From: an uncultured Methanosarcinales archaeon
Lineage (GTDB): Archaea; Nanobdellota; Nanobdellia; Woesearchaeales; CAYSVS01
Direction of reading: 5' to 3'
Assembly: GCA_964589485.1 (NCBI GenBank)
Contig: CAZPRK010000007.1
Span: 1-39,442, forward strand
DNA: 39,442 nt
In this document: piece after piece, positions 618 through 38,675 of the stretch
Layout of the letters: every line of letters begins with the position of its first letter
Position numbering within the stretch: the first letter of the stretch is position 1
The notes under the pieces: model-generated
Database searches by the model: none
What the model saw: only the letters and a program-made list of their open reading frames with translations
What the model was told of the DNA's origin: nothing
Position numbers and translations under genes: made by a program

Positions 618-1298
618 GTGAAAAATACAATTATTAAATTAGATAATGTTTGGAAAGTATATAAAATGGGAGATGTAGAAGTTCCTGCATTAAGAGGAAT
701 CAATATTGACATTAAAGAAGGTGAATTTGTTTCAATTATGGGTCCTAGTGGAAGTGGTAAGAGTACAGCAATGAACATGGTTGGAGCATTAGATATTCCA
801 ACTAAAGGTAAGATTTTCCTTGAAAACAATAATATTGCAAATATGGATGAAAGTGACTTAGCACAAATTAGAGGAAAAACAATAGGATTTATATTTCAAC
901 AATTTAATTTAATACAAACTCTTACAGCATTAGAAAATGTAATGCTTCCAATGACGTTTCAAAACATTTCAAAAGAAAAAAGAATTAAACGTGCACAAGA
1001 TTTATTACAAAAAGTAGATCTTTTAGAAAGACAACATCATAAACCAAACGAGTTATCTGGTGGACAACAACAAAGAGTTGCCATTGCAAGAGCATTAGCC
1101 AATAACCCTAAAGTAATACTTGCAGATGAACCTACCGGAAACTTAGATTCAAAGACAGGAATAAATGTAATGCACTTTTTACAAGAACTTAATGAAAAGG
1201 AAGGAAAAACTATTGTTATGGTTACTCATGACAAAAATATATCAAAAAACGCTAAAAGAACCGAAATACTTAAAGATGGGAAGTTCTTAAGAGGTTAA
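618..1298 (+). CDS. ABC transporter ATP-binding protein, LolD/MacB (SalX) family
   Basis: Walker [10 protein letters not shown], signature [15 protein letters not shown], Walker [13 protein letters not shown]-loop VTHD; GTG start. Confidence 0.95.
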
Positions 1299-1302
1299 TA
1301 AA

Positions 1303-2511
1303 ATGAAAAAAACTATATTTTTACTATTAATTGTATTAATGTCATCATACGTATCAGGAGGATTGGTTGATGGTCATAAAATTGAAGCTACGTTAATAAG
1401 CCAAACTGCAGACCCAGTAAAACCTGGTGAATTTGTAGAATTAAGATGGAAAATTGAAAATATAGGTAAAGTATTAAACAATGTTGAGTTTGAACTTCTT
1501 CCAGAGTACCCTTTTAGTTTAACTGATTCAGGCATAAGAAAAGTTGGAAGTTTATATGGTAAGCAACAAGGCGATGATGCTGTTATTCTTTATTATAAAT
1601 TAAAAGTAGATGAAAGAGCAGTTGAAGGTATTAGTAAGGTAAAATTAAAATATAAAACTAATTCTTTAACTTGGACAACATTTCCTGATTTTGATGTTAG
1701 AATTCAAACAGATGATGCAATTTTATCTGTTGTTTCAGTTAACACTATACCTGAAGTGATTGCCCCCGGGGAAAAAGCAAGTATTGAAATTAAGTTAAAA
1801 AATGAAGCTGATTCAGTTTTAAAAAACATAAAATTAAAATGGACAACTTTATCCTTAACTTCGTCCACAACCGAACTACCATTTACTCCAATTAAATCTA
1901 CTAATGAAAAAATATTAAATTCATTACATCCAAAAAATGAAGAAAGTATTACATTTAATGTTGTAGTTAGTCCTGAAGCTGAGGCTAAAGATTATAAAGT
2001 AGAATTATCTCTGTCGTATGAAGATGAACTAGGAGAAAATTTCTCAACAAAAAATATAATGGGAATCATAGTTGGTAAAACTCCAGAATTAAGAATAACT
2101 CTTGAAGAAAGTGAAATTGTTAAACCAAATATGAATGGAGATGTTGGAATTAAAATAGTAAATAAAGGTGTAAGTGACATTAAATTTACAAATATAATTC
2201 TTCAAGAAAACGAATGTTATACAATACTTTCACCACATGAAGTTTATTTAGGAAATATTGACTCAGATGATTATGAAACTGCTGAATTTAAGCTCCATAT
2301 GCAAGGTTGTAATAACTTGCCAATTATTCTATCTTACAAAGATGCAAATAATCAAGAATATATTGAAGAACATACATTAAACATGAAACTATTTTCTGAA
2401 AAAGAAGCAATCAAGTTTGGATTAATTCAAAAAAGTAACAAAGTTGGAATATTATTAATTATTATTATCGTAGTTGGTGGATTTTATCTTTGGAGACGCT
2501 ATAAGAAATGA
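1303..2511 (+). CDS. COG1361 S-layer-domain / Ig-like repeat membrane-anchored protein
   Basis: N-terminal signal peptide, repeated Ig-like motifs (PVKPGEFVELRWKIENIG, IAPGEKASIEIKLKN), C-terminal TM helix plus basic tail; lies between ATPase and MacB permeases as is common in archaea. Confidence 0.8.
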   Translation: MKKTIFLLLIVLMSSYVSGGLVDGHKIEATLISQTADPVKPGEFVELRWKIENIGKVLNNVEFELLPEYPFSLTDSGIRKVGSLYGKQQGDDAVILYYKLKVDERAVEGISKVKLKYKTNSLTWTTFPDFDVRIQTDDAILSVVSVNTIPEVIAPGEKASIEIKLKNEADSVLKNIKLKWTTLSLTSSTTELPFTPIKSTNEKILNSLHPKNEESITFNVVVSPEAEAKDYKVELSLSYEDELGENFSTKNIMGIIVGKTPELRITLEESEIVKPNMNGDVGIKIVNKGVSDIKFTNIILQENECYTILSPHEVYLGNIDSDDYETAEFKLHMQGCNNLPIILSYKDANNQEYIEEHTLNMKLFSEKEAIKFGLIQKSNKVGILLIIIIVVGGFYLWRRYKK

Positions 2512-3734
2512 TTTTAGATTATATTGGCTTAGCCTTCAATAATTTAAGAAGAAGAAGGTTAAGAAGTTGGCTTACTTTAATTGGAATTATAATCGGAATA
2601 GCTGCAGTTATTTCTTTAATTGGTTTAGGTGAAGGACTTAGAGTAGCTATAACTTCTCAGTTCGGATTACTTGGAAATGATGTGCTTAGTGTAAGAGCAT
2701 CCGGAATTGATTTTGCAGGTCCTCCAGGAACTAATACGCCAAATCCTTTATCTGATACATTATATAAAAAACTTGAAAATATTAACGGTATTGAAGCTGC
2801 ATTTAACAGGGATTTAGAAACAGTATTAATGAAATTTAACGATAAAGAAAAAACGGTTATAATAGCTTCATCTCCGGAAGGAAAAAATAGAAAATTATTT
2901 GAAAAAATGTTAAACCTGAAAACAGTTGAAGGAAGGTTACTTAAAGATAATGATAAGAAAAAAGTTCTTATTGGTTATAATTTTGGTAATAAAGATAATT
3001 TTGGTAGATCTATATCTAGTGGAAGTAAAGTTGAAATAAATGGTATAACTTTTGAAGTTGTCGGAAGACTTGAAAAAAAAGGATCTTTTATAATTGATAA
3101 TAATGTAATCACAAATGAAAAAGATATTCTTGAATCATTAGACAAAGACGATGGAACTGCGAATATAATTGCAGTTAAAGTTAAAGATGTTGACAAAATT
3201 AACATTGTCAAAAAAAATATAGAAAAAATATTAAGAAAAGAAAGAAATGTCAAAAAAGGTGAAGAAAATTTTATTGTACAAAGTCCAGTAAATGCAATTG
3301 AAAGTTTAAATTCAACTTTATTTGCAATTCAACTTTTTATTACAATAATCGCAACCATTTCTTTATTAGTTGGTGGAATTGGTATTATGAACACCATGTA
3401 TACATCAGTGCTTGAACGAACAAAGGAAATAGGAATAATGAAAGCTCTCGGAGCTAAGAATTCAGAAATATTCAAAATATTTTTTATCGAGTCTGGGTTT
3501 TTAGGACTTGTTGGAGGGTCTTTAGGTCTAATTATTGGGTTAATATTAGCATTTGGATTTGCATTTATTGGAAGAACTTTTTTAGGAAGTCAATTAATTC
3601 AAGCTCAAGTTACATTAACAGTTATAATAGGTTCAATGTTATTTTCATTTATATTAGGTATTATATTTGGTGTATTGCCAGCAATTCAAGCTTCAAAATT
3701 AATTCCAGTAGATTCATTGAGGAAAGCAAAATGA
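2508..3734 (+). CDS. ABC transporter permease, MacB/FtsX family
   Basis: RRRLRSWLTLIGIIIGI N-terminus, GGIGIMNTMYTSVLERTKEIGIMKALGA, PAIQASKLIPVDSLR; ATGA overlap with upstream gene. Confidence 0.93.
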   Translation: MILDYIGLAFNNLRRRRLRSWLTLIGIIIGIAAVISLIGLGEGLRVAITSQFGLLGNDVLSVRASGIDFAGPPGTNTPNPLSDTLYKKLENINGIEAAFNRDLETVLMKFNDKEKTVIIASSPEGKNRKLFEKMLNLKTVEGRLLKDNDKKKVLIGYNFGNKDNFGRSISSGSKVEINGITFEVVGRLEKKGSFIIDNNVITNEKDILESLDKDDGTANIIAVKVKDVDKINIVKKNIEKILRKERNVKKGEENFIVQSPVNAIESLNSTLFAIQLFITIIATISLLVGGIGIMNTMYTSVLERTKEIGIMKALGAKNSEIFKIFFIESGFLGLVGGSLGLIIGLILAFGFAFIGRTFLGSQLIQAQVTLTVIIGSMLFSFILGIIFGVLPAIQASKLIPVDSLRKAK

Positions 3735-4939
3735 GCGAAGAATTAAAATATGCAATTGGTAACTTGAAAAAAAGAAAATTAAGAACATTCCTTAGCGTTA
3801 TTTCTATTACAATAGGAATTACTTCAATTTTTGCAATAGTTAGCTTTGGATTAGGTTTACAAAGTTATGTTAATGAAATTGCTGCAGAAGCTGGTGTAGA
3901 TAAATTATTTATTCAATCAAAAGGAATAGGCGCTCCTGGTACAGATTTAACTTTTTCATTATCTAAAGAAGATATAAATTTTATAGATAAAATAAAAGGT
4001 GTAAATCAAATTACAGGTGTATATGCTCAAGCAGGTGAGATTGAACATAATAAACAAAAAAGGTTTGTATTTATTATGGGTATTGATACTAAACAACTTG
4101 ATTTTATTGACGAAAGTTTTACTGCTACAGTTGAAAAAGGAAGACATTTAAAAAAAGGAGATATAGATAAAGTTGCCCTAGGTTACAACTATCAATTAAA
4201 TGATAAAATATTTAAAAAGAAAATTAATATTGGAGATAAAGTTAATATTAATTCAAATAAATTTGAAGTCATAGGTTTTTATGAAGAACTTGGAAACCCT
4301 CAAGATGATTCAAACATTTACTTAACAAGGGAATCTTTTGAAGAAATATATCCAGATATTGAAGATAAGTTTGGTTTTCTTATGATTAGAGCAGATAAAA
4401 ATGTTAAAACTGCTGACTTATCTGAAAAAATAACTGAAAAATTTAGAAAACATAAAGATCAAAAAAAAGGAGAGGAAACTTTTTTTGTTCAAACTTTTGA
4501 AGACGCATTAAAAACTTTTGGAGATGTATTAAATGTATTGAATGGAGTTTTATTTTTAATTGCACTAATTTCATTAATAGTTGCAACTGTAAATATAATG
4601 AATACAATGTTTACAGCTGTAATGGAAAGAACAACTGAAATTGGTATAATGAAAAGTATCGGTGCTAAAAATTCAACAATACTAAAAATATTTATGTTCG
4701 AATCAGGAATTATAGGTTTAATAGGAGGAGTTACTGGAATCACAATTGGTTTTATTATTGCTTCTATTGGCGGAAATGCAGCTGCTGCATCTGGATTTTC
4801 TTTATTAAAGCCAATATTCCCTTTTAGTTTAATTTTTGGATGTTTATTATTTGCTTTAATTACCGGAATTATCGCAGGATACTTACCTTCAAGAAAAGCT
4901 TCAAACTTAAAACCAGTAGATGCTTTGAGATACGAATAG
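3731..4939 (+). CDS. ABC transporter permease, MacB/FtsX family (paralog)
   Basis: IMNTMFTAVMERTTEIGIMKSIGA and PSRKASNLKPVDALRYE motifs; ATGA overlap. Confidence 0.93.
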   Translation: MSEELKYAIGNLKKRKLRTFLSVISITIGITSIFAIVSFGLGLQSYVNEIAAEAGVDKLFIQSKGIGAPGTDLTFSLSKEDINFIDKIKGVNQITGVYAQAGEIEHNKQKRFVFIMGIDTKQLDFIDESFTATVEKGRHLKKGDIDKVALGYNYQLNDKIFKKKINIGDKVNINSNKFEVIGFYEELGNPQDDSNIYLTRESFEEIYPDIEDKFGFLMIRADKNVKTADLSEKITEKFRKHKDQKKGEETFFVQTFEDALKTFGDVLNVLNGVLFLIALISLIVATVNIMNTMFTAVMERTTEIGIMKSIGAKNSTILKIFMFESGIIGLIGGVTGITIGFIIASIGGNAAAASGFSLLKPIFPFSLIFGCLLFALITGIIAGYLPSRKASNLKPVDALRYE

Positions 4940-4988: not shown

Positions 4989-6116
4989 TTAATAAAACTC
5001 TTTTAATAATTTAAATACTTCTGGATTATTTTGTAATTTTCTAATGGCTCTATTTTCTATTTGTCTTATTCTTTCTCTTGTTACTCCTATTTTTTTTCCA
5101 ACTTGTTTTAAACTTCTCGCCCAGCCATCATCTATTCCAAATCTCATATTTAATATGTAAGCTTCTCTTTCACTTAATATACTAAACGCTTCTTTAACTT
5201 TACCTTTTAATGTATTTTGTTCTACAATTTCTTCAATATCTACAACTTCGTCTTCTATAAGTTCATTAGATTCTCCTTCGAAAATTGCATCGAGTGAAGA
5301 TGTTTGTTTTAAATTTAAAAGAAAGTTTATCCGTTCTTGAGGTAATTCAAATTCTTTGGCAATTAACTCTATATCTGGTTCAAAACCATATTCAGTTTGA
5401 AATTCTCCTACAAAATTAGCTATTTTTTTTTGAACTTCTTTTACGTGAACAGGTATTCGTACTAAATTATCAGATTGTAAATAACGTTGTATAGCCTGAT
5501 TGATCCACCAAGTAGCATATGTAGAAAATTTATATCCTAACTTATGTTCAAATTTTGGAATTGCCCTCATCAAACCTAAATTACCTTCTTGAATTAAATC
5601 TAAGAATACCCTATCATCTCTTAGATACTTCTTCGCAATATTTACAACTAATTTCGTATTACATTCTACAAATTTGTATACGGCTTGTTCATCTCCCCTA
5701 TCTACAGCGATAGATAGTTCACGTTCTTGTTCTTTAGTTAGTAAAGAATGACCCTTAATTTCATTTAAATAAAGACTTGTTGGATCGAGCAAATCTACTT
5801 TTCTTTCAAGTAACTCAACTTCATGTAATCTACTAATAGGTAAAACAGTATGATTATTATGATTAACTAAATATTCATAAACTTTACTAAATGTTAAACC
5901 TAATTTCTTTGTTACTTGATCTACGGTTAAATGAGATTTAGATTCAGGTATAGGTTCACCGCTAATTATATGTAAGTGATTTATAATATAAGCTCCTTTA
6001 ATTTCAGGTCCATGTAATTCTTTTAACCTTCTAATATCTTTAGATTCTAATTGACGTACCTTCTCTGTTTCATAAGATCTCAATAGAGATATTCCTGAAT
6101 ATAAATTGGATGTCAT
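4989..6116 (-). CDS. RNA polymerase sigma-70 family factor, RpoD/RpoS-like (regions 1.2-4.2) with N-terminal extension
   Basis: Region 1.2 DPTSLYLNEIKGHSLLTKEQE; region 2 DLIQEGNLGLMRAIPKF..GYKFSTYATWWINQAI; region 3 VRIPVH; region 4 LSEREAYILNMRFG..SLKQVGKKIGVTRERIRQIENRAIRKL. Confidence 0.95.
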   Translation of the reverse strand: MTSNLYSGISLLRSYETEKVRQLESKDIRRLKELHGPEIKGAYIINHLHIISGEPIPESKSHLTVDQVTKKLGLTFSKVYEYLVNHNNHTVLPISRLHEVELLERKVDLLDPTSLYLNEIKGHSLLTKEQERELSIAVDRGDEQAVYKFVECNTKLVVNIAKKYLRDDRVFLDLIQEGNLGLMRAIPKFEHKLGYKFSTYATWWINQAIQRYLQSDNLVRIPVHVKEVQKKIANFVGEFQTEYGFEPDIELIAKEFELPQERINFLLNLKQTSSLDAIFEGESNELIEDEVVDIEEIVEQNTLKGKVKEAFSILSEREAYILNMRFGIDDGWARSLKQVGKKIGVTRERIRQIENRAIRKLQNNPEVFKLLKEFY

Positions 6117-6134
6117 TTTACAAGAAATAACGTA

Positions 6135-6149
6135 TATTTATAAAAAGCT
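6135..6149 (-). promoter_or_regulatory. archaeal TATA-like promoter of sigma gene 1
   Basis: Minus strand AGCTTTTTATAAATA; TTTATAAATA begins 28 nt upstream of the ATG at 6116; no SD. Confidence 0.6.
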
Positions 6150-7082
6150 TTAGTACAAATCTTCTAATTGAGAAGCAAATTTACTTTCTCTTAAATTTTT
6201 TAATCCTCTTTTATACAATTTTCTAGCAATCCCATCAGATCTATTCATTCTTCTACCTATTTCTCTCAAAGATAATTTATCTACACCTAAACCAAAAGCA
6301 TGAGTAATAACAAAATATTCTCTTTCATTTAAAATTTTTAAAGCATCTTTAATAACTTCACTTTTTTTTAGAATTTCAAATGCAGAGTCTACAGTACCCG
6401 GAATAATGTCACCAAGTGAAGAATTTTCACTTATTGGGTCATCTAAAGAATATGAAACTCTACTACTATTAACAACTTCAAATACTTTCTTTGTAGGTAA
6501 GCTTAGTTTTACAGCTATTTCTTCCAAAGAAGGTTCCCTTTTTAATTTTTTTCTTAGAATTTCTTGTTCTCTTTCAATTTTACTTTTATTTTTAATTAAG
6601 CTAACAGGTAACCTAATTAAATAAGCTGTCATTTTAACTGCATCTTGAATTGACTTTCTAAGTTTAGAGTTAGCATAAGTAGAAAATTTATACCCAAGAG
6701 ATTTATCAAAGTCTTCTATTGCTTTATATAATCCAAAAATAGTTTCTTGAAAATAATCAAATAAAGTTAGACTTGTATTATGTCCTTTCTTAATTTCTTT
6801 TTTTGCAAATTGCATACCTAATCTTAGGTTTGAAAACAATATTGTTTGAAATGCATCAGGGTCTCCGTTTTCATATTGTTCAAAAAGAGATATTTCTTGT
6901 TCAGGTGTAAGAACTTCATATTTTTGTAAAATAGAAACATAATCTTGGAAATTATAATTTGAATCAGTATTTTCTAAAACTTTACTAGATAAATTAGCAG
7001 ATAAATCTAACATTCCTCTTACTTCTTGACCTAATACCTGAGGAAGATCATATAATACTCCTATTTCTGAAGAACCTCTCAT
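6150..7082 (-). CDS. divergent sigma-70 family factor
   Basis: YEVLTPEQEISLF (1.2), SNLRLGMQFAKK (2.1), FDKSLGYKFSTYA (2.3), LIRLPV..LKREPSLEEIAVKL..SLDDPI (3), LNEREYFVITHAFGL..LSLREIG (4). Confidence 0.88.
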   Translation of the reverse strand: MRGSSEIGVLYDLPQVLGQEVRGMLDLSANLSSKVLENTDSNYNFQDYVSILQKYEVLTPEQEISLFEQYENGDPDAFQTILFSNLRLGMQFAKKEIKKGHNTSLTLFDYFQETIFGLYKAIEDFDKSLGYKFSTYANSKLRKSIQDAVKMTAYLIRLPVSLIKNKSKIEREQEILRKKLKREPSLEEIAVKLSLPTKKVFEVVNSSRVSYSLDDPISENSSLGDIIPGTVDSAFEILKKSEVIKDALKILNEREYFVITHAFGLGVDKLSLREIGRRMNRSDGIARKLYKRGLKNLRESKFASQLEDLY

Positions 7083-7102
7083 AAATAAAGTAATAATATG
7101 TT

Positions 7103-7120
7103 AATTTATAAGATTTTCTT
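7103..7120 (-). promoter_or_regulatory. archaeal BRE-TATA-like promoter of sigma gene 2
   Basis: Minus strand AAGAAAAT-CTTATAAA; box begins 30 nt upstream of the ATG at 7082. Confidence 0.6.
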
Positions 7121-7192: not shown

Positions 7193-8065
7193 ATGAATGC
7201 ATTATCCATCAATAATTTAGAAAAAACATACTCCAATGGAATGAAAGCTCTAAAAGGCATTTCTTTTGATGTAGAAGAAGGAGATTTTTTCGCATTACTT
7301 GGTCCAAATGGAGCAGGAAAAACTACAACTATAGGCATAATTACTAGTTTAGTAAATAAAACAAATGGAAGTTTAAAAGTTTTTGATAAAATTAAACAAA
7401 CTGAAATTAAAAAAATGATTGGAGTTGTACCTCAAGAGTTTAATTTCAACATATTCGAAAAAGTTATAGATATTATTGTTACACAAGCTGGATATTATAA
7501 TGTACCAAAAAAAGTTGCATTAAAAAGAACTAAACCATTATTGGAAACTTTAGGATTATGGGATAAAAGAAACCATAAAGCAATTACATTATCTGGTGGA
7601 TTAAAAAGAAGATTAATGATTGTAAGAGCTTTAATCCATAGACCTAAATTATTGATATTAGATGAACCTACAGCAGGCGTTGATGTTGAACTTAGATATA
7701 GTATGTGGGAATTTCTTAAAAAAATGAATAAAAATGGAACTACAATTATCTTAACAACTCACTATTTAGAAGAAGCTGAGCAGTTGTGCAATAAAATTGC
7801 AATTATAGATAAAGGAATTATCGTAAAAAATACAACAATGAAAGAATTACTTAAAACTGTAGATAAGGAAACTTATCTTATAGAAACAAAAAAGCCAGTA
7901 AAGAAAAAAGAGTACTTTGATTTAAATAAAATAGATACTAATACTTATGAAGTAAGTTTAAACAATAAAGATTTAAACAAATTTTTCAAAGATAATGAAG
8001 TAGTCAATATAAGAAACAAAGTTAACAAATTAGAAGGTTTATTTATGCAATTGGTGAAAAAATGA
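7193..8065 (+). CDS. ABC-2 type transporter ATP-binding protein (YadG-like)
   Basis: GPNGAGKTT, LSGGLKRRLMIVRAL, LILDEPTAGVD, TTHYLEEAE. Confidence 0.93.
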   Translation: MNALSINNLEKTYSNGMKALKGISFDVEEGDFFALLGPNGAGKTTTIGIITSLVNKTNGSLKVFDKIKQTEIKKMIGVVPQEFNFNIFEKVIDIIVTQAGYYNVPKKVALKRTKPLLETLGLWDKRNHKAITLSGGLKRRLMIVRALIHRPKLLILDEPTAGVDVELRYSMWEFLKKMNKNGTTIILTTHYLEEAEQLCNKIAIIDKGIIVKNTTMKELLKTVDKETYLIETKKPVKKKEYFDLNKIDTNTYEVSLNNKDLNKFFKDNEVVNIRNKVNKLEGLFMQLVKK

Positions 8066-8817
8066 TAGATTTAAAGACATTAGTAAATAGAGAGATTGAA
8101 AGATTTATGAGAATATGGACTCAAACTTTACTTCCTAGCGTAATAACAACTGCTTTATATTTTCTTATATTTGGTAAATTTATAGGAAACCAAATAAATG
8201 ATATTTCTGGGTTCAGTTACATGGCATTTATCGCTCCAGGGTTAATTATGTTAGGCGTTATAATGAACTCATATCAAAATGTATCAAGTTCATTTTTTTT
8301 AGCAAAATTTCAAAAAAGTATTGAAGAATTATTAGTTTCTCCAATTTCAAATAATAAAATAATATTTGGATTTATGTTAGGAGGAATGTTAAGAGGAATT
8401 TTTGTCGGAATCTTAATCATGTTAGTTTCATTATTTTTCATAGATCTTCAAGTATATAGTTATTCAGTTGTTTTAATTTATTTAATTTTAACTTCAGCAT
8501 TATTTTCACTTGCAGGGTTAATTAACGGAATATATGCAAATAATTTTGATGAAATTATGGTAGTTCCAACTTTTGTTTTAACTCCATTAATTTATTTAGG
8601 AGGGATATTTTATTCATTAGACGCTTTATCTGGATTTTGGCAAGGAGTTTCTAAATTAAATCCTATTTTATATTTAATCAATGGATTTAGGTTTGGTTTT
8701 TTAGGTATATCTGATATTAATATATTTGTTTCATTTGGAACTTTAGTTATATTTGTAATTATATTCTATGGAATAACTTATTACTTAATCGATAAAGGTA
8801 TTAGAATTAAGAGTTGA
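8062..8817 (+). CDS. ABC-2 type transporter permease (YadH-like)
   Basis: REIERFMRIWTQTLLP, IEELLVSP, NPILYLINGFRFGFLG; six TM segments. Confidence 0.9.
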   Translation: MIDLKTLVNREIERFMRIWTQTLLPSVITTALYFLIFGKFIGNQINDISGFSYMAFIAPGLIMLGVIMNSYQNVSSSFFLAKFQKSIEELLVSPISNNKIIFGFMLGGMLRGIFVGILIMLVSLFFIDLQVYSYSVVLIYLILTSALFSLAGLINGIYANNFDEIMVVPTFVLTPLIYLGGIFYSLDALSGFWQGVSKLNPILYLINGFRFGFLGISDINIFVSFGTLVIFVIIFYGITYYLIDKGIRIKS

Positions 8818-9212: not shown

Positions 9213-10193
9213 TTATAAATCTTTATTCCTTATATTTTTAATTAACCTCTTAGCAAGATTAAACAACTTACTTCTAGGAAAGCCAGGAAAAACATTTAAT
9301 TCTATAACATATGCTTTATCTTTACTCAACAAGACATCAACACTTGTAAAATTAACATTATAAGCTTTCGCCGCTTTAATAGCTTGAATTTCAGCTTTTT
9401 TCATTAAATGTTTAGGAATTTTTTTCAAATAATTTTGAGTTTCACCTTTGCCACCTTGACTAATATTAGTAACTACATTCTCTGCATCATTACTTCTTGG
9501 ATAAATATAACAAATTTTACCATAACTAATGTAAAACCTTAAATCAAACTTTCTTTCATTTATTAAATAAGGTTCAATTGCATCTTCAATAATAATATCA
9601 TTTTTTAATAATTCGGATAAAAATTTATCGTTACTTTCTTTAAAACTCCATCCATGATCACTTTTTCTGCTTATAATTCTTCCAGACTTAAATCTAAAGT
9701 TAGTTAATATTTTATTTTTACTAATATAAGTAATTCCTTTACCCATTCCCCCATAACGAACTTTAATGAATATATTCTTTTTTTGAGATAATTCTTTTAT
9801 TTTTTTTATACTTCTTGTAAAATAAGATTTAGGAACAGTTATTTTATTCTTAATCAGTAATTCTTTGATATATTCTTTATCTCTGTCAAAATATAATTTA
9901 CTTGGATGAACAACATATTTAATATTTTTATATTTTTTTTCTAACTTTTTTTGATAAAACTCAAGGTAATTTCTTAATTTATCAAAGAATTTTTTATTTC
10001 CATAAATCCCCCTATACTTTGGAGTTTCTATATAATTATTCCAATACCATTCAGGAAAAAATAAAATAGCGATAACATTTCCTTTAATATCAGGTAATAG
10101 TTTCCCGTATTTTGCAGAAACAACATTTTGTTTAATAAATTTCAAATAAGATTCATAATCAGAAGAATTACCTATTGCCAAAATAGTTGTCAT
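9213..10193 (-). CDS. ATP-grasp fold ligase (RimK / YheC-YheD-like)
   Basis: FIKVRYGGMGKGI, KFDLRFY, VVTNISQGG, SVDVLL..VIELNVFPG. Confidence 0.85.
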   Translation of the reverse strand: MTTILAIGNSSDYESYLKFIKQNVVSAKYGKLLPDIKGNVIAILFFPEWYWNNYIETPKYRGIYGNKKFFDKLRNYLEFYQKKLEKKYKNIKYVVHPSKLYFDRDKEYIKELLIKNKITVPKSYFTRSIKKIKELSQKKNIFIKVRYGGMGKGITYISKNKILTNFRFKSGRIISRKSDHGWSFKESNDKFLSELLKNDIIIEDAIEPYLINERKFDLRFYISYGKICYIYPRSNDAENVVTNISQGGKGETQNYLKKIPKHLMKKAEIQAIKAAKAYNVNFTSVDVLLSKDKAYVIELNVFPGFPRSKLFNLAKRLIKNIRNKDL

Positions 10194-10600: not shown

Positions 10601-12064
10601 TTAACTTTCGTGTTTCACAAAAACCATTTTAATAGCAATAACAATTGGAATAGCTACACTTAGCCAACCTAAATATATTGCCCACATTGGATATCCTTCG
10701 TAAGGTGCTTGTATTTCTTTGTAAAATTGTACTACAATTAACAAAATTAATACAATAGGAATTACATATTTAATTGAATAATCCCACCATTCGCTAATTT
10801 GTAGTTTACTTACAGAGTTAATATATTCTCTTAAATTATGTGCTCCATAAGTCCAACCTACAGCTAAACATTGTAATATCCCTACAATTACTAATCCAAA
10901 ATTTGTTACAAAATGGTCAAATATATCTAAAAAATATAATCCTGCTTTTGTTACAAACAATATTCCTAATAAAAAACAAACTGAACAAACAATCATTGCA
11001 ATCTTATTTTTCTTAGCTTCTTGATATTTATCATACAATACTGTGTTTACTGCTTCCACTAATGAAAATGCACTGTCAATTCCTAATGTTAATAACATTA
11101 AAAAAAACAAAGCCGAAAATAACCAAGCGAAAGGCATTAATGATAATGCTTGTGGGAATACAACAAATGCTAGTCCAGGTCCTGAAGCTATAACTTCAGA
11201 CACTGCAACATTAGTTGAAGTTGCCATAAACCCTAAAACTGAAAATACAACAAAACCTGCAAATAAACTTATGCCTGAATTTGTTAATGCCGTAATCCAT
11301 GCATCTCCTACAACATCTTGATCTTGTTTATTGTAACTTGCATAAGCAATCATTATTCCAAAGCCAAGACTTAAAGTAAAAAAGATTTGAGATGCAGCAG
11401 CTAACCAAATTTCTGTGTTTAGTAATGCAGAGAAATCAGGAGTTATATAAGCCATAATTCCAGCCATTGCTCCTTCTAATGTAATTCCTCTTATGAATAA
11501 TACCACTAATAATATTAAAGGTAAAGGCATTGTCCATGTAACAACTTTTCCAACACTTTTAACTCCTTTTCTAACACATAAATATATCATAACCCATACT
11601 GCTAGTAAAGAAAAGAATAACATTAAATTTATTCCACCTACTTCATTAACACCTGAAGAAATTTGTAAAACATTATTAAAAAAATATCCTTTTGAATCCT
11701 CTGCCCAAGGTAAAGTAGTAGAAAAACTTTTTACTAAATATACTAACGACCAAGCCATTACTGCTGCATAATAAACTACAACAATAAACCCAGAAAAAAT
11801 AGCCATAAATCCAATTCCGCTTAATTTATTATTAACACTTTTAAATGCATGTATTGCACCTTTTTGTAACTTTTGTCCCAAACCAAATTCTAAAATTAAT
11901 AATGGGATTCCTAAAACAAATAACGCAATTAAGTAAGGTATAAGAAAAGCTCCACCGCCATATTCATAAGCTAAATAAGGAAAACGCCAAATATTTCCTA
12001 AACCAACAGCACTCCCAATAGCTGCAAATAAGAAAATAGTTCTTGATGACCATCTATCTCGCAT
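10601..12064 (-). CDS. sodium-dependent transporter, NSS/SNF (LeuT-like) family
   Basis: RDRWSSR..AAIGSAVGLGNIWRFPY..GGGAFLIPY; QIFFTLSLGFG; GPGLAFVVFP; SD GGGGTG upstream. Confidence 0.96.
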   Translation of the reverse strand: MRDRWSSRTIFLFAAIGSAVGLGNIWRFPYLAYEYGGGAFLIPYLIALFVLGIPLLILEFGLGQKLQKGAIHAFKSVNNKLSGIGFMAIFSGFIVVVYYAAVMAWSLVYLVKSFSTTLPWAEDSKGYFFNNVLQISSGVNEVGGINLMLFFSLLAVWVMIYLCVRKGVKSVGKVVTWTMPLPLILLVVLFIRGITLEGAMAGIMAYITPDFSALLNTEIWLAAASQIFFTLSLGFGIMIAYASYNKQDQDVVGDAWITALTNSGISLFAGFVVFSVLGFMATSTNVAVSEVIASGPGLAFVVFPQALSLMPFAWLFSALFFLMLLTLGIDSAFSLVEAVNTVLYDKYQEAKKNKIAMIVCSVCFLLGILFVTKAGLYFLDIFDHFVTNFGLVIVGILQCLAVGWTYGAHNLREYINSVSKLQISEWWDYSIKYVIPIVLILLIVVQFYKEIQAPYEGYPMWAIYLGWLSVAIPIVIAIKMVFVKHES

Positions 12065-12128: not shown

Positions 12129-12662
12129 CTATTTCCACTTAATGCTACAACCCATACTAGGTTTAAACCAATCAAGAATTTCTTTTCCTTCCATTAAAAA
12201 AGTAATTGCATCCTTTAAACTTTCTTCATTAACTCCATCGTTTGGATTCATAGAATCATTTATTCTCCCATGATAAACTAATTTATGTTCTTTATCTAAT
12301 AAATATGCTTCAGGTGTACATACAGCTCCTAAGGCTTTAGCTACTTCTTGTGTTTCATCTATTAAATAATATTTTAATCCTAATTCATGTGCTAGTTCTA
12401 TCATTTGTTCCTTACCATCTTCAGGATATTCTTCCGCATCATTTGAGTTTATGCAAATAAAAGGAATATCTAATGATTGCAATTCTTTAATTATATCAAG
12501 TTTAGATCTAACATATGGACAATGATTACACATAACTAATATAACAACAGCTTGTTCATTAAAGTCAGATAAACTAATTGTAGTATCATCATAATTTTCT
12601 AATGTAAAAGAAGGAACTTTATCTCCTTTTTGTAAAGTTTGTTCCGATTTAAGTAAAACCAT
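12129..12662 (-). CDS. AhpC/TSA-like thioredoxin family protein
   Basis: MCNHCPYV, INSNDAEEYPED, AVCTPE, YHGRIND, PSMGCSIKWK. Confidence 0.9.
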   Translation of the reverse strand: MVLLKSEQTLQKGDKVPSFTLENYDDTTISLSDFNEQAVVILVMCNHCPYVRSKLDIIKELQSLDIPFICINSNDAEEYPEDGKEQMIELAHELGLKYYLIDETQEVAKALGAVCTPEAYLLDKEHKLVYHGRINDSMNPNDGVNEESLKDAITFLMEGKEILDWFKPSMGCSIKWK

Positions 12663-14279: not shown

Positions 14280-16178
14280 ATGCAATATAAAGGTTTCACA
14301 TTAGATAAATTTCAAGAAGATGCAATTAAAGCAATAAATAATAATGAAAGTGTTGTAGTTTCAGCTCCAACTGGAAGTGGAAAAACTTTAATTGCAGATT
14401 ACATAATTGAAAAAGATTTAAAGAAAGGTATAAGAGTTATATATACCGCTCCAATTAAAGCTTTATCTAACCAAAAATATAAAGAATTTAGTAAATTATT
14501 TGGTGAAGAAAATATAGGATTATTAACAGGAGATATTGTAATTAATTCTAGAGCTCCAATTTTAATCATGACAACTGAAGTTTATAGAAATATGTCTTTA
14601 GTTGATGATATAACTTTAGAAGATGTTTCTTATGTTATTTTTGATGAAGTACATTATATTAATGATTATGAAAGAGGATATGTATGGGAAGAGTCTGTAA
14701 TTTTTTCAAAAGATCATGTAAGGTTTATTTGCCTTTCAGCAACTATTCCCAATGCTGATCAATTTGCATCATGGATTTCTACAATAAAAAAACATAAAGT
14801 TGCTGTCATTCATCATACAAAAAGAAATGTTCCATTAAATAAACAATTCTATGATTCTGAATTAGGCATTTGTACATTAGAAGACATTAAAGAAGTTTAT
14901 GACATCCCACATTATGACTCATTCAGAAACAAAAGAAAAAGACCAAAAGTTATTCCTCCTAATCATATAGAATTAGTTAAAGACTTAGGCGATAACCTTC
15001 CATGTTTCTTTTTTGATTTTTCTAGAAAAAATTGTCAAAATAATGCACTTACATTATCTAAAGAAAGATTATTTCCTTTAAACCCAGAAATCCAAAAACA
15101 TATGAGAGAAAAATTAAGTAAAACTTCTAATAAAGTTAATGAATTAAAATCAACATCTATATTAAAAAAAACACTCCCATATGGAATTGCATTCCATCAT
15201 GCTGGGTTGCTTCCAATAATGAAAGAATTAGTTGAAGAATTATTTGAAAAAAGTCTAATTCATGTATTATATACAACCGAAACTTTCGCAGTTGGAATTA
15301 ACATGCCAGCTAAAACAGTTTGTTTTGCATCATTAAGAAAATTTGATGGAATGAATTTTAGATTTCTTAACAGTAAAGAATATTTTCAAATTGCAGGAAG
15401 AGCTGGAAGAAGAGGAATAGATAAAGTTGGATTTTCTTATGCAATGATTGACAGAAGAGATTTTGATTATAAATTATTAAAAAAAATAACTGAGAAAGAT
15501 GTTGAACCTATTAAATCTCAATTTAGACTTTCAGTTAATACTGTACTAAACATAATCCAAAGACATAGTGATGAAGAAATTAAACATATACTAACTATGA
15601 ACTTTGATACATACCAAAGGTATGGAAATAATTTCGCAAATGCTACAAAAACTATTTCTAAATTTAAGTCAATAGTGAAAAAATTAAAAAAACTAAAATA
15701 CATTGAAGATGATAAATTAACATATAAGGGAGAATTTGCAGCAAGGATATATGCAGACGAAATTATTACTGCCGAAATATTTGCTACTGATTTTTATAAA
15801 AATTTAGAAGAGTACGAAATTACTATGATACTTTGTGCTATATGTTATGAGCCTAGAGAAACCACTAAATTTTTCAACGTATTCAAATCAAAAAAAGTTT
15901 TTAATCTAAAACGTAAATTAAGGAAATTTAAAGATAAACATTTTATTAATTTACTTGACTTAACTGCATTTATTGATCCGTTATATAAAGAAAAAACATT
16001 ATTTGACATATTAGATAATACCAATTTATTGGAAGGGGATGTTATTAGATTACTAAGACAAATTCTAGATAGAATAGGTCAAATGAAAAAAGCTACACAT
16101 GACATTGATTTGTCACATACTTTAGATAGTATTGCATTTAAAATTGAGAAATCCATGGAAGAAATTGATATGATATAG
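14280..16178 (+). CDS. Ski2/HelY-like superfamily II RNA helicase
   Basis: APTGSGKT, YTAPIKALSNQKY, DEVH, SAT, HHAGLLP, TETFAVGINMPA, QIAGRAGRRG, C-terminal EGDVIR (DSHCT-like). Confidence 0.92.
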   Translation: MQYKGFTLDKFQEDAIKAINNNESVVVSAPTGSGKTLIADYIIEKDLKKGIRVIYTAPIKALSNQKYKEFSKLFGEENIGLLTGDIVINSRAPILIMTTEVYRNMSLVDDITLEDVSYVIFDEVHYINDYERGYVWEESVIFSKDHVRFICLSATIPNADQFASWISTIKKHKVAVIHHTKRNVPLNKQFYDSELGICTLEDIKEVYDIPHYDSFRNKRKRPKVIPPNHIELVKDLGDNLPCFFFDFSRKNCQNNALTLSKERLFPLNPEIQKHMREKLSKTSNKVNELKSTSILKKTLPYGIAFHHAGLLPIMKELVEELFEKSLIHVLYTTETFAVGINMPAKTVCFASLRKFDGMNFRFLNSKEYFQIAGRAGRRGIDKVGFSYAMIDRRDFDYKLLKKITEKDVEPIKSQFRLSVNTVLNIIQRHSDEEIKHILTMNFDTYQRYGNNFANATKTISKFKSIVKKLKKLKYIEDDKLTYKGEFAARIYADEIITAEIFATDFYKNLEEYEITMILCAICYEPRETTKFFNVFKSKKVFNLKRKLRKFKDKHFINLLDLTAFIDPLYKEKTLFDILDNTNLLEGDVIRLLRQILDRIGQMKKATHDIDLSHTLDSIAFKIEKSMEEIDMI

Positions 16179-16258: not shown

Positions 16259-16762
16259 ATGATCAAAAAAATAATTATTTTAACTTTTTTTATATTTATA
16301 ATAGGTTGTACTTCAAATGAAATTAATACTGAATCTACAATTAATTGGCAAGATATAGAATTAAAAGATATTAACTCTCAAGAAACTTTTACAATTGGCG
16401 AATTTAAAAAACCAGTATTAATAGAAAGTTTTGCAGTATGGTGTCCTACATGCACAAGACAACAAAATGAACTAAAAAAATTACACAAAGAAGATGATTC
16501 TTTTATTTCAATTACATTAGACACTGACCCAAATGAAGATGAAGCATTAGTTAAAGAACATACAAATAAACATGGTTTTGATTGGAGGTATGCAATTTCA
16601 CCAAAAGAATTAACTCAAGAGTTAGTTAACATTTTCGGAATTAATTTTGTTAATGCTCCTTCCGCTCCAATTGGGTTATTATGTCCTGGAAAAAAACCAA
16701 AACTATTACAAACTGGTTTCAAATCAAAAGATGAATTAAAAGAGGCATTAGTAACATGTTAA
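16259..16762 (+). CDS. TlpA/ResA-like thioredoxin lipoprotein
   Basis: Signal peptide with IIGC lipobox-like motif; FAVWCPTC active site. Confidence 0.85.
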   Translation: MIKKIIILTFFIFIIGCTSNEINTESTINWQDIELKDINSQETFTIGEFKKPVLIESFAVWCPTCTRQQNELKKLHKEDDSFISITLDTDPNEDEALVKEHTNKHGFDWRYAISPKELTQELVNIFGINFVNAPSAPIGLLCPGKKPKLLQTGFKSKDELKEALVTC

Positions 16763-17433
16763 CAAACTTATGGATTTCTTTAATAGCTGGAGTTTTAGCT
16801 CCATTAGGTGCAGTTTGTGTTCTTCCACTATATCCAGGGTTTTTAGCTTATCTATCAAATAAATTAAAAGGAAAAGTTGACAAGAAAACTTACATTCTAC
16901 TTAGTTTAAATGTTACTTTAGGAATTGTAGTTTCTATGTTCATTGTTGGTTTAATTTTTTCTAAATTTTTACAAACATCTTTAACTAATGCAATTGGAAT
17001 TATTTCACCTATAGCTTTTAGCATTTTAGGTATAATTAGTATATTTTTATTATTCAATAAAGATTTCAGTACATTACTACCTAAAGCAAATGTTCCTATT
17101 AATCAAAACCCTTTATGGAGTTCCTTTTTATTTGGTTTATTCTTTGGAGCAATTGTTCTTCCATGTAATCCAGGAACATTAACAGTATTATTTGCAGTTT
17201 CTACTACAACAACAAATTTCATATTAAATTTACTTAACTTTGTGTTTTTTGGAATTGGAATGTCATTGCCATTAATATTATTCTCAGTGTTATCTTCAAA
17301 TAAAAGTCAAGAAGTTATTTCTTGGTTAACTAAACATAAAAGTGCTATAAATAGAATTACTGGATTAATTATGTTAAGCATTTCATTATATTATTTAATA
17401 TTTATATTTGAAATATTCAAAAGTTTATTTTAA
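16756..17433 (+). CDS. ccdA: CcdA/DsbD transmembrane electron transporter
   Basis: VCVLPLYP and VLPCNPG redox Cys motifs, six TM helices, coupled to the thioredoxin gene. Confidence 0.8.
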   Translation: MLTNLWISLIAGVLAPLGAVCVLPLYPGFLAYLSNKLKGKVDKKTYILLSLNVTLGIVVSMFIVGLIFSKFLQTSLTNAIGIISPIAFSILGIISIFLLFNKDFSTLLPKANVPINQNPLWSSFLFGLFFGAIVLPCNPGTLTVLFAVSTTTTNFILNLLNFVFFGIGMSLPLILFSVLSSNKSQEVISWLTKHKSAINRITGLIMLSISLYYLIFIFEIFKSLF

Positions 17434-19354: not shown

Positions 19355-20203
19355 ATGAAACAAAATCTAAAAGTAAGCATTATAGGTTTACTAGGTAATT
19401 CATTTTTATTTGTTATAAAATTAATAGTAGGAATATTAAGTAACAGTATTGCTTTACTTTCAGACGCATTTCATTCTTTATCAGATACAATAGCTTCAAT
19501 TGCTGTTTTAGTAAGTGTTCATGTTTCTGCACAAAAACCAGATCACAATCATCATTTTGGTCATAGTAGGGCTCAACCTTTAGCTGGACTTATTTTTGCA
19601 ATTTTTGCAGCAGTTATTGGGTTTGAAGCAATATTATTGGCAATTAAAAAATTCTTTGTAAATACTGAAGTTACTCTTCATTATTATGCAATGCTAGTCA
19701 TGGTTATTTCAATAATAATTAAATTTAGTTTATATATTTATTTTAAAACCCATGCACATGGAAATCCTGCAATTAAAGCAAGTGCAATAGATTCAAGAAA
19801 TGATATTCTATTAAATTTAGTTGTTTTAATAGCAATAATATCAAGTTATTTCAAAATACCATATATTGATCAAGCAATAGGTTTAATCATTGGTATTATT
19901 ATTATAAAATCAGGAATTCATATTGGATTAGAAAACATTGGATTTTTAATGGGTGAAGCTCCAGATAAGAAAACAATGCAAAAAATACATTCTAAATTAG
20001 CAAAGTTAAGAATACCTAGAATCAAAGGATATAGAAATCTAAAAGCACATTACATTGGTCCTTTCTTACATATTGCCTTGGAGATTGTTGTGAATAAAAA
20101 TATGACAACTAAAACAAGTCATAATTTAAGTGAGAAAGTAGAAGAAGAATTAGAGAAATTTAATTTTGTTGAACAAGTATTTGTTCATGTTGATTTTGAG
20201 TGA
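19355..20203 (+). CDS. cation diffusion facilitator (FieF/CzcD-like)
   Basis: SIALLSDAFHSLSD, PDHNHHFGHSR, AIDSRND, C-terminal VFVHVD. Confidence 0.93.
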   Translation: MKQNLKVSIIGLLGNSFLFVIKLIVGILSNSIALLSDAFHSLSDTIASIAVLVSVHVSAQKPDHNHHFGHSRAQPLAGLIFAIFAAVIGFEAILLAIKKFFVNTEVTLHYYAMLVMVISIIIKFSLYIYFKTHAHGNPAIKASAIDSRNDILLNLVVLIAIISSYFKIPYIDQAIGLIIGIIIIKSGIHIGLENIGFLMGEAPDKKTMQKIHSKLAKLRIPRIKGYRNLKAHYIGPFLHIALEIVVNKNMTTKTSHNLSEKVEEELEKFNFVEQVFVHVDFE

Positions 20204-20784
20204 AGATAAGCGTCAACTTCTTGTTTTGCATAAGATAAATTCAGAAGATTTCTATCTAAAACTTCAGGTGTTTTATCATTATCAAATTTAACTCCTACAC
20301 CTCCTTCTTCTAAATAAAAATATTCAATTCTTTCAAAATTATCATTACCTGAAAGATCATGAGTTATTTCGAGTTTTTGCTCTTGTCCAGATCTACTATA
20401 ACTTATTTTAAGTCCAATCGTACTTGCATTATGAATTGATCCATACCTTTCTTGTAAAAAAAAAAGCAATTCATTGTATCTATAACTTCTGTCCACACTT
20501 GCTGAAAAATCACTAGATACATTAAATAATTTTTTATGAGAAGGTAATTTTTCAACTAAAAACCTATTTTTAATACTTATTTCATCAAGAACATGATGAA
20601 TTCCTTTAGAGTATAAATATATAAAAGATTGATTAATGTCAGAATCACCTTCTTCAGTAATTGTTATAACATCTCCAGTTTCTAATAAATTATCTAAACT
20701 TTTTCTTAACATAAAATTAAAATAAACTAAGTATATATTTAAAGATTATTGTAATTGATAAGTATTTGTTCATGTTGATTTTGA
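20175..20784. repeat. 25-bp perfect direct repeat (20175-20199 and 20760-20784)
   Basis: AAGTATTTGTTCATGTTGATTTTGA occurs twice, 585 bp apart. Confidence 0.9.
20185..20712 (-). CDS. hypothetical protein, tandem paralog A
   Basis: Similar to 20770-21252 (SLDNLLETGDVI / SLDSLIREGDVI; FIYLY / FVYLG; both end SKST). Confidence 0.7.
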   Translation of the reverse strand: MLRKSLDNLLETGDVITITEEGDSDINQSFIYLYSKGIHHVLDEISIKNRFLVEKLPSHKKLFNVSSDFSASVDRSYRYNELLFFLQERYGSIHNASTIGLKISYSRSGQEQKLEITHDLSGNDNFERIEYFYLEEGGVGVKFDNDKTPEVLDRNLLNLSYAKQEVDAYLHSKST

Positions 20785-21252
20785 ATAATCATTTGCTATT
20801 TGTTGCGCTGTTTTAAAATCTCCAGAATGACCAATTAGAGTTTCATTTTTACCTTTTTTCAAAATAACTTCAACATGTAGACTATAAACTTCATACTCAA
20901 CTTTCTTTTCACCAAGTTCTTGTTTAATTCTTAATTTAAATGGTTCGCCAATATTTGGTTCAAAACCTATATCAAGTTTTGAGTCAACTGCCTGAACAAT
21001 AGTTTCATAATTATCATGTAAAAAACCTAATATTGAAGTATAAATTTTACTCCCAAATTCAATTTGTCCACTTGCCAGAGGCATACTAAATAATGTCTCA
21101 GATTCAGATAAATCAACAGCATACCTTTTTTTATCTTTTAAGTAATCAACAATATATTTTCCAGATCGTCTTCCTAAATAAACAAATAGTTCATCTTCTG
21201 TACGAATAACATCTCCTTCTCTAATCAAGGAATCTAAACTTTCTTTTTGCAT
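20770..21252 (-). CDS. hypothetical protein, tandem paralog B
   Basis: Similarity to paralog A; shared upstream promoter-like repeat. Confidence 0.7.
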   Translation of the reverse strand: MQKESLDSLIREGDVIRTEDELFVYLGRRSGKYIVDYLKDKKRYAVDLSESETLFSMPLASGQIEFGSKIYTSILGFLHDNYETIVQAVDSKLDIGFEPNIGEPFKLRIKQELGEKKVEYEVYSLHVEVILKKGKNETLIGHSGDFKTAQQIANDYSKST

Positions 21253-27857: not shown

Positions 27858-28196
27858 TTTAATAATAAGCATATCAGCTTCACACATCTCATACTTACTA
27901 AAATCTTCAACCCAAGCATAATCTTTAATATCTAATTTTTGTATTTCTCCTTTCATTATACATTTAAAAGCAATTAATTGAATATTTTTATATTCAGAAA
28001 CAGCTAATTGTTCATGAACTTCAATGTCAACTCCTAACTCTTCTTTAATTTCCCTAACTAAACATTCTTCATTACTTTCATTTTCAACTTTCCCACCAGG
28101 AAATTCCCACCTTCCAGCATTACTTCGTCCATCATTTGGACGTTGAGTTATTAAGAACTTATTTTCTTTTTTAATTATTGCGCATGTGACTATCAT
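27849..28196 (-). CDS. NUDIX hydrolase, MutT/NudG-like
   Basis: WEFPGGKVE...ECLVREIKEELG Nudix box. Confidence 0.9.
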   Translation of the reverse strand: MIVTCAIIKKENKFLITQRPNDGRSNAGRWEFPGGKVENESNEECLVREIKEELGVDIEVHEQLAVSEYKNIQLIAFKCIMKGEIQKLDIKDYAWVEDFSKYEMCEADMLIIKLL

Positions 28197-38583: not shown

Positions 38584-38675
38584 AGCCTCTGGGGAGATTT
38601 GAACTCCCGACCTGTCGCTTTCTTAGATCATAAGATCATACTAGGCGACCGCTATAGCCACTAAGCCACAGAGGC
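38584..38675 (-). tRNA. tRNA-Thr(AGT) with 19-nt intron at 37/38
   Basis: Minus strand GCCTCTG TG GCTTAGTGGCTATAGC G GTCGC CT AGT A [TGATCTTATGATCTAAGAA] A GCGAC AGGTC GGGAG TTCAAAT CTCCC CAGAGGC T; perfect acceptor, anticodon and T stems; U73; no CCA. Confidence 0.9.

Follow-up and report, generated by a model that had tools for sequence, protein, structure and literature searches.

The stretch of DNA considered here, which we call the window, comprises 39,442 nucleotides (nt), positions 1 to 39,442 of contig CAZPRK010000007.1, from the assembly of an uncultured archaeon, and it carries two genes of the bacterial sigma-70 family, designated sig1 and sig2, which are arranged head to tail, both on the minus strand, with a 33-nt spacer between them. 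Both open reading frames (ORFs) are intact, as an initial annotation of this DNA had claimed, in that each starts with ATG and has zero internal stops, and the two encoded proteins are 29% identical to one another. The database copy of sig1 (P0001, 364 amino acids, aa) begins 11 codons downstream, at a TTG (window 6084-6116), and the ATG at 6116 is favoured here as the start of the gene because the alignment with P0361, a relative of the N-terminal domain, begins at residue 1 and because a TATA box sits 28 nt upstream. The two genes and the features within and ahead of them are as follows.

6116..4989, minus strand: sig1, a 375-aa ORF for a sigma-70 family protein, primary-sigma-like, with a lineage-specific N-terminal domain
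5802..6116, minus strand: N-terminal domain of sig1 (residues 1-105), standing where region 1.1 would be
5472..5684, minus strand: region 2 of sig1 (residues 145-215), with FLDLIQEGNLGL as region 2.2 and KFSTYATWWINQAIQR as regions 2.3-2.4
5031..5216, minus strand: region 4 of sig1 (residues 301-362), from the alignment to SigA, with VTRERIRQIE in region 4.2
6144-6137, minus strand: TATA box of sig1, TTTATAAA, within the 33-nt spacer
7082..6150, minus strand: sig2, a 310-aa ORF for a degenerate sigma-70 family paralogue
6633..6857, minus strand: region 2 of sig2 (residues 76-150), in which the tryptophan pair and most of the region 2.2 signature are replaced (YANSKLRKSI)
6183..6377, minus strand: region 4 of sig2 (residues 236-300), in which the recognition helix is replaced (RSDGIARKLY)
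7112-7105, minus strand: TATA box of sig2, CTTATAAA, beginning 30 nt before the ATG

The products of both genes are sigma-70 family proteins. Among the Pfam models for the family, sig1 matches Sigma70_r2 with 68.1 bits (cut-off 24), r4 with 57.9 (24.1) and r1_2 with 39.3 (22), its r3 score of 19.3 falling under the cut-off of 25.3, and region 3 of this protein is aligned through to SigA and modelled as helices. The corresponding scores for sig2 are 50.0 for r3 (cut-off 25.3), 41.9 for r4 (24.1) and 30.6 for r2 (24), with no match to r1_2 at E<=0.01; residues 47-75 of sig2 align with the part of SigA that corresponds to region 1.2. The initial annotation had assigned regions 1.2, 2, 3 and 4 to each protein, and at the Pfam cut-offs this stands for three of the four regions in each, with region 3 of sig1 and region 1.2 of sig2 falling short. 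Alignments to solved SigA chains in the PDB span all four regions in both proteins (sig1 residues 107-374, E 5e-59, 203 bits; sig2 residues 47/48-308, E 1e-32, 117 bits), and in both cases the best structures are those of Bacillota SigA. The two proteins also score above the cut-off of 42.9 for the NCBIfam superfamily model TIGR02937 (114.3 bits for sig1 and 76.2 for sig2). All of the NCBIfam equivalog cut-offs for RpoD, SigA and RpoS are missed by both, the best of these models, NF006666 (cut-off 572), giving 240.6 for sig1 and 135.6 for sig2, and there is no match in either protein to the Pfam model of the acidic region 1.1 (PF03979). The AlphaFold2 models have a mean predicted local distance difference test score (pLDDT) of 75.5 for sig1 and 74.4 for sig2, the sigma domains being modelled with confidence and the N-termini and region 3.2 poorly, and the top Foldseek matches of both models are sigma factors.

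One known setting for a sigma-70 family protein outside the ordinary sigma factors is the MZA type of anti-virus defence system, whose component MzaA carries sigma-70 regions 2-4 in its C-terminal part, and it might be asked whether the two genes belong to such a system. Models of MzaA do match the pair (NCBIfam NF041931 with 210 bits for sig1 and 108.7 for sig2, PADLOC PDLC02203 with 132.9 and 80 bits), but the matches are confined to the C-terminal sigma part of models that are 726 and 683 positions long, the 210-bit match of sig1 occupying only positions 459-704 of the 726 in NF041931, and they lie far below the cut-off of 800. No partner genes are nearby, and none of the five neighbouring or unannotated proteins that were scanned gave a PADLOC match, and a defence system of this kind seems hardly credible.

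Residue anatomy of the two proteins

For a finer view of what each protein has kept, the reference was a set of 144 alignment columns that are >=95% identical in 114 bacterial homologues, a set that is biased to Bacillota-like SigA, and against it sig1 keeps 91 of the 144 conserved columns and sig2 60. These totals are spread over the proteins in very different ways. In region 2.2, 15 of 17 columns are kept by sig1 and 8 by sig2; in regions 2.3-2.4 the figures are 15 and 9 of 18, and in region 4.2 they are 16 and 5 of 23. In addition, sig1 keeps 10 of the 11 columns of region 4.1, 3 of the 9 of region 3.1 and 5 of the 17 of region 3.2, which is its least conserved part and in which sig2 keeps 9. 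When regions 2.2, 2.3-2.4 and 4.2 are pooled and set against regions 3.1 and 3.2, sig1 retains 46/58 versus 8/26 (Fisher p 4e-5) and sig2 22/58 versus 14/26.

The individual motifs that survive in sig1 are FLDLIQEGNLGL, KFSTYATWWINQAIQR, RIPVH..E and VTRERIRQIE, which we take to serve, in that order, the contact with the beta-prime clamp helices, the melting and reading of the -10 element, the reading of the extended -10 and the reading of the -35 element. In sig2 the tryptophan pair has become SK, the region 3.0 histidine has become S, and the region 4.2 helix reads RSDGIARKLY. Judged by these residues, sig1 retains the predicted surfaces for core binding (region 2.2) and for the -10 (regions 2.3-2.4), extended -10 (region 3.0) and -35 (region 4.2) elements of a promoter. 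For its part, sig2 retains the predicted fold and the more canonical region 3.2 of the two, and has lost the residues expected to read DNA together with the signature residues of region 2.2.

Ahead of its sigma domains, sig1 has an N-terminal domain that is non-acidic (residues 1-105, isoelectric point 8.05) and has no Pfam match. Its sole true relative in 1.84 billion representatives is P0361, a fragment of 128 aa with 44% identity. Residues 60-96 match the repeated helix-turn-helix (HTH) units of two multi-HTH proteins, including six repeats of P0362, and the AlphaFold2 model is of low confidence over the domain (pLDDT 35-69). The likeness of residues 60-96 to an HTH unit is a lead, and this segment may be HTH-like.

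Promoters and the origin of the contig

In archaea that make leaderless mRNAs, a TATA box lies about 25-30 nt before the start codons of first genes and Shine-Dalgarno (SD) motifs are found at genes internal to operons, an arrangement that bacterial -10/-35 promoters would not yield. The window follows the archaeal arrangement. In 18 of the 44 window genes a copy of the strict heptamer TT[TA]A[TA]A[AT] has its first base at -33..-25, compared with an expectation of ~5% from its window-wide density or ~12% from its density in local upstream DNA (binomial p 1e-12 and 1e-6, respectively), and a broader heptamer set, which was defined post hoc after the data had been viewed, is found there in 26 of 44 genes as compared to 3-8 in other windows of 9 nt. 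It is within this broader set that the sig2 box is counted; it lies inside a 110-nt divergent intergenic region that is common to sig2 and the ATP-binding cassette (ABC) transporter gene at 7193. Gibbs sampling of a 12-mer gave a diffuse motif, which brought no gain over the heptamer counts. SD-like motifs precede 7 of 13 operon-internal genes versus 4 of the 31 that stand first (Fisher p 0.008), and neither sig1 nor sig2 has one at -18..-5, so that both the absence of SD motifs and the placement of a TATA box 28-30 nt upstream of each ATG are as the initial annotation had them. The flanking transcription units (7193 on the plus strand and 9190 on the minus strand) have the same TATA spacing as the sigma genes and as genes 20-30 kb away. 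Each sigma gene is located, by these sequence features, behind a predicted archaeal-type TATA promoter at the spacing that is typical of the contig. As an aside on the flanking ABC operons, GGAG/GAGG motifs occur at their internal genes, and their first genes are leaderless.

The window contains no ribosomal genes and none for RNA polymerase (RNAP), TBP or TFB, and the assignment of the contig to the archaea consequently rests on a TYW1 gene, a tRNA intron, a helicase and the promoter pattern. The presence of TYW1 (Taw1), asserted in the initial annotation, is borne out by ORF 30374-31387, which scores 345.8 with the equivalog model TIGR03972 (cut-off 317.95) and whose relatives are 57-69% identical to it. 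Among the 120 matches listed for this protein, 19 are named by organism and 18 of those 19 are archaeal (8 Woesearchaeota, 4 Pacearchaeota, 4 "archaeon", 1 Nanoarchaeia and 1 Nanobdellota), the other one being labelled Bacteroidota. The tRNA gene at 38584-38675 (minus strand) had been described as having a bulge-helix-bulge intron. An intron of 19 nt in the anticodon loop is indeed found by ARAGORN in its intron mode, and the spliced product is a class-I tRNA of 73 nt, but a strict bulge-helix-bulge is absent from the fold, which consists of a 4-bp helix flanked by two 7-nt single strands. In its default mode ARAGORN reports a 92-nt tRNA-Leu(tag); the label in intron mode is "tRNA-Ser(aga)", yet the variable arm is short, and the duplication of TATGATCT leaves the splice points ambiguous and the anticodon with them. 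Taken together, the TYW1 relatives, the tRNA intron and the TATA spacing agree with the archaeal origin that had been proposed for the contig, and its placement as Woesearchaeota-like DNA of a DPANN archaeon is well supported by its sequence.

The question then arises of whether the sigma genes truly belong to this archaeal DNA or whether the region is an artefact of assembly or binning, in which bacterial DNA has been fused to an archaeal contig. Such an artefact could explain why every organism-named close homologue of sig1 and sig2 among the matches listed is bacterial, and it could accommodate the flanking ABC transporters, which are of bacterial type (e.g., the permease at 8062-8817, PRK15066, 366.7 bits versus a cut-off of 225). 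It is hard to reconcile with the composition of the genes, which is indistinguishable from that of the rest of the window, as the initial annotation had noted for AT content: GC is 0.283 in sig1 and 0.268 in sig2, and GC at third codon positions (GC3) is 0.128 and 0.100, all within the window range, and relative synonymous codon usage correlates with that of the other genes at 0.90 for sig1 and 0.94 for sig2 (window mean 0.90, standard deviation 0.07). Codon usage and TATA spacing are continuous over the sigma genes and their flanks, where a chimeric junction had been named as something to look for, and the sigma genes and both flanking units carry the TATA spacing of distant genes. At E<=1e-4 none of the 44 other ORFs matched an integrase or transposase family, in keeping with the earlier claim of their absence. 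Given the matching codon usage, the shared promoter type and the lack of integrase and transposase genes, it is very unlikely that the sigma genes sit at a chimeric junction or were inserted recently. Furthermore, the two proteins have been observed on 2 and 3 contigs in the clustered protein set, and mis-binning was ruled out for the DPANN sigma family as a whole in the accessible part of Castelle et al. 2021 (PMC8204110). We consider an artefact to be extremely unlikely. The best explanation of the sequence data is that sig1 and sig2 were acquired anciently and are probably fully domesticated genes of the bacterial sigma-70 family. Domestication had also been the view of the initial annotation, and ameliorated codon usage, leaderless archaeal-type promoters and low identity to relatives all speak for it.

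Relatives, selection and possible roles

Relatives of the two proteins were searched for in a set of 5.8 billion protein clusters, with 120 matches listed for sig1. Apart from sig1 itself at 100%, the matches listed for sig1 are 40-47% identical to it, the best non-self match being at 47%. The matches listed for sig2 include one ortholog, P0122, at 79% identity, which resides on a contig of 1.3 kb, and then nothing above 38%; P0122 excepted, the nearest relatives of the pair are 36-47% identical. Four proteins of 306-307 aa, P0003-P0006, share C-terminal features specific to sig1 and group with it at a Shimodaira-Hasegawa-like approximate likelihood ratio test (SH-aLRT) support of 83, which rises to 98 once two long rows of the alignment (L005 and P0235) are removed. 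On whether the two genes were acquired once or twice the trees differ: in a quick one, a branch with support 69 places this group and the pair formed by sig2 and P0122 on the same side; sig2 joins another group when L005 and P0235 are removed and moves elsewhere again when the sig1 clade is left out, the tree runs having given long-branch warnings and the placement of sig2 varying between them. The branches are very long, at 3.8 changes per column for sig1 and 6.7 for sig2 with P0122. A phage origin was considered and set aside: across 50,697 records of phages the best tblastn matches reach 34-44% identity, no closer than those in bacteria. The neighbours in the ESM Atlas, which are bacterial clusters together with some Uroviricota sigma clusters, are uninformative as to origin.

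Genes that have diverged so far might be no more than decaying, functionless remnants of horizontal transfer, and the long branches, the loss of most DNA-contact residues from sig2 and the missing of every NCBIfam cut-off for RpoD and RpoS equivalogs would all be in line with decay. An argument to the contrary comes from sig2 and its ortholog, which at 79% identity are both 310 aa long with zero indels. When neutral mutation was simulated to the same identity, the frame stayed open in 0.1% of 2000 simulations, and since an open frame at 79% almost never survives neutral drift, sig2 appears to be held by selection. The initial annotation had given a lack of purifying selection as grounds for abandoning its view, and the simulations indicate that selection does act on sig2; purifying selection on at least this gene is supported by the comparison. 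The N-terminal domain of sig1 is preserved as well, at 44% identity, in the fragment P0361. Beyond that, both reading frames are intact, a well-placed TATA box stands before each gene, codon usage is fully ameliorated and the conservation of sig1 is strongly uneven along its length (the p value of 4e-5 given above), and we regard functionless remnants as very improbable.

What the two proteins do is a matter for more cautious proposals, and the initial annotation had offered two candidates, an effector aimed at the RNAP of a bacterial host or partner and a sigma fold turned into a DNA-binding regulator. The one that we prefer, and put forward tentatively as possible rather than probable, is that both are regulators that act within the archaeal cell, with sig1 as a DNA-binding protein that possibly also contacts the polymerase clamp and sig2 as a paralogue that modulates. 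By this scheme the sigma-2 and sigma-4 domains of sig1, together with the extra HTH at its N-terminus, would bind AT-rich, promoter-like DNA, and by its region 2.2 sig1 may dock on the archaeal RNAP at the clamp coiled-coil, a site homologous to the one on bacterial beta-prime. In so doing it would modulate the initiation that TBP and TFB direct and not replace it, and sig2, as a degenerate paralogue, would modulate sig1 or compete with it.

Several observations weigh against a regulator of this kind. The joint retention in sig1 of residues for core binding, melting and -35 recognition is the pattern expected for work in a bacterial-type holoenzyme, and a free DNA-binding regulator should have been expected to drift at the holoenzyme sites, as sig2 seems to have done. 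The organism-named proteins among the matches listed are all bacterial (10/10 for sig1 and 3/3 for sig2), as are all of the listed GTDB loci with sig1, of which there are at least 6, at 40-43% identity; the GTDB matches listed do not include the genome of the window itself. There is also no sign in the window of an excess of sites on which sig1 might act: sigma-70-like promoters number 129 versus 131 +/- 12.8 in one comparison with shuffled DNA and 111 versus 124.7 +/- 11.9 in another, TTGACA occurs 25 times versus an expected 28 +/- 4.4, and TGNTATAAT occurs 4 times versus 6.1 +/- 2.6, in a test of enrichment that is weak because the DNA is 27% GC.

Two of these observations lend some weight to the notion that sig1, perhaps with sig2, serves a bacterial-type RNAP that is not the cell's own but that of a contacted partner or host, of a mobile element or of a virus, or one encoded in another part of the genome. 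That sig1 has held on to its core-binding and melting residues together fits better here, inasmuch as it keeps 15/17 columns in region 2.2, 15/18 in regions 2.3-2.4, 10/11 in region 4.1 and 16/23 in region 4.2 despite a branch length of 3.8, and sigma-70-type promoters would not need to be enriched in the archaeon's own DNA. In plants and algae the sigma factors of plastids have a known cognate bacterial-type polymerase and bear transit peptides. As nuclear-encoded proteins they offer a precedent, being sigma-70 genes in a genome whose own polymerase ignores them according to the accessible part of PMC5215360, and it is in being housed where the host polymerase does not use them that they resemble the DPANN pair, for which, in contrast to them, neither a cognate polymerase nor a targeting signal is known. 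DPANN genomes are described, in the portion of Castelle et al. 2021 (PMC8204110) that was available, as carrying many bacterial systems. The case is weakened by the content of the window, in which there is no bacterial-type rpoB or rpoC or other bacterial RNAP gene and no export signal or secretion gene, no search having been aimed at signal peptides. Region 3.2 occupies the active-site channel of the polymerase in bacterial holoenzymes, and it is this region that is least conserved in sig1. In addition, cultivated DPANN have archaea as their known hosts, as far as the sources at hand describe them, and the holoenzyme signature residues are gone from sig2, which is under selection all the same. 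On balance, service to a foreign polymerase strikes us as unlikely.

It can also be imagined that the two proteins form a working initiation module of bacterial style, which would redirect the archaeal RNAP or that of a bacterial partner to a subset of promoters, with regions 2.2 and 4 of sig1 docking on the homologues of the clamp coiled-coil and the flap. The decay of the two proteins looks complementary, in that sig1 keeps regions 2.2, 2.4 and 4.2 and not 3.2 and sig2 keeps only 3.2, and this would mean that they act jointly. We think such a module rather improbable. The remaining probability, beyond the regulators that we prefer and the alternatives to them, belongs to functions that have not yet been thought of.

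Neighbouring genes and known systems

The sigma genes are flanked by transporter genes. On the one side there is an ABC-2 pair of bacterial appearance at 7193-8817 (plus strand), whose permease passes NCBIfam PRK15066 (366.7 versus 225), and on the other, at 618-4939 (plus strand), there are a bacterial-looking ATPase and two permeases of the MacB/FtsX type, preceded by a 402-aa ORF without a family match; family profiles thus find the MacB-type permeases of the operon that the initial annotation had reported, and for the COG1361 part of that claim, ORF 1303-2511 gives a match in neither Pfam nor NCBIfam. Farther along the window, 14280-16178 (plus strand) encodes a 632-aa helicase that is Ski2/MTR4-like and has a DSHCT domain, and its closest solved relatives are eukaryotic exosome MTR4 and Ski2 (E 4e-101), archaeal Hel308 matching with E 1e-43 or weaker. 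Two tandem ORFs on the minus strand (20185-20712 and 20770-21252) have no family matches and are 29% identical to one another, and the DNA ahead of each, TATA box included, is almost the same, a combination that looks like an old tandem duplication in which the promoter has been kept. A transporter of the sodium:neurotransmitter symporter (SNF) family is encoded at 10601-12064 (minus strand; Pfam 506.5 bits). Genes of thiol-redox type are found at 12129-12662 (AhpC/Redoxin), 16259-17433 (Redoxin with a DsbD-type membrane protein) and 23039-23944 (DsbA/thioredoxin-like), and a SufS-type cysteine desulfurase (21861-23042) adjoins the thiol-redox genes. The window also encodes a protein of the fatty acid hydroxylase family (27117-27857, plus strand; 96.2 bits), for which the nearest NCBIfam model is that of the ornithine-lipid hydroxylase OlsE, far under its cut-off, and two ATP-grasp-like proteins (28193-30340 and 9213-10193, both on the minus strand), one of which is 715 aa long and has a weak match to RimK.

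The initial annotation implied that sigma-70 genes in such an archaeon were a novelty, and in this respect it was mistaken. The accessible part of a review (PMC6126073) credits the first description of archaeal sigma factors to Rinke et al. 2013, and Castelle et al. 2021 (PMC8204110), in the parts that we had at hand, describe a sigma-70 family, fam00359, in DPANN genomes, where it is commonest in Woesearchaeota and also occurs in 38% of Aenigmarchaeota, 38% of Pacearchaeota, 16% of Diapherotrites and 15% of Micrarchaeota genomes. The family is annotated there as primary sigma factor K03086, and in the available portion of Table S3 it numbers 221 sequences with a typical length of 280 aa. In those same parts of the paper mis-binning is excluded, the expected TBP, TFB and TFE are present in DPANN, no anti-sigma factors are reported and the mechanism is called unclear. 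The present pair resembles fam00359 in being a bacterial-type sigma-70 locus on a DPANN contig that is not mis-binned. It differs in that sig1 is longer, 375 aa versus the typical 280 aa, because of its near-orphan N-terminal domain, and in the tandem of a canonical and a degenerate gene with its residue-level pattern, of which the accessible sections of PMC8204110 make no mention.

With the bacterial group 1 and group 2 factors, SigA/RpoD and RpoS, the pair has in common the domain order 1.2, 2, 3, 4 and, as far as sig1 is concerned, the signature residues of regions 2.2, 2.3-2.4, 3.0 and 4.2. It is set apart from them by the lack of a region 1.1, by the missed equivalog cut-offs and by its host with archaeal TATA promoters; sig1 is no more than 47% identical to anything else among the matches listed, and sig2 is without the tryptophan pair and the residues of the -35 recognition helix. 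No experimental or functional study of an archaeal sigma factor was found in the literature that we searched, subscription journals lying outside the search.

The sigma pair is therefore a divergent addition to an oddity of the DPANN archaea that has already been published, and it is the layout of a canonical and a degenerate gene in tandem that deserves notice. Taken by itself, the sequence finding adds a divergent member and anatomical detail and not a new phenomenon. The statement that archaea lack sigma factors is still being made, as in the accessible part of a paper from 2025 (PMC12316311). Textbooks, too, still deny archaea sigma factors, yet in DPANN archaea genes of this kind are maintained by selection. 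For this conflict the pair makes a sharp test case, in that sig1 looks fit to bind both -10/-35 DNA and the core of a polymerase and sig2 has lost the residues for doing so. Whether the target of sig1 is the archaeal RNAP, a bacterial RNAP or DNA alone bears on a question that has stood since 2013, and also on the extent to which the bacterial and archaeal systems of transcription initiation may be interchangeable.

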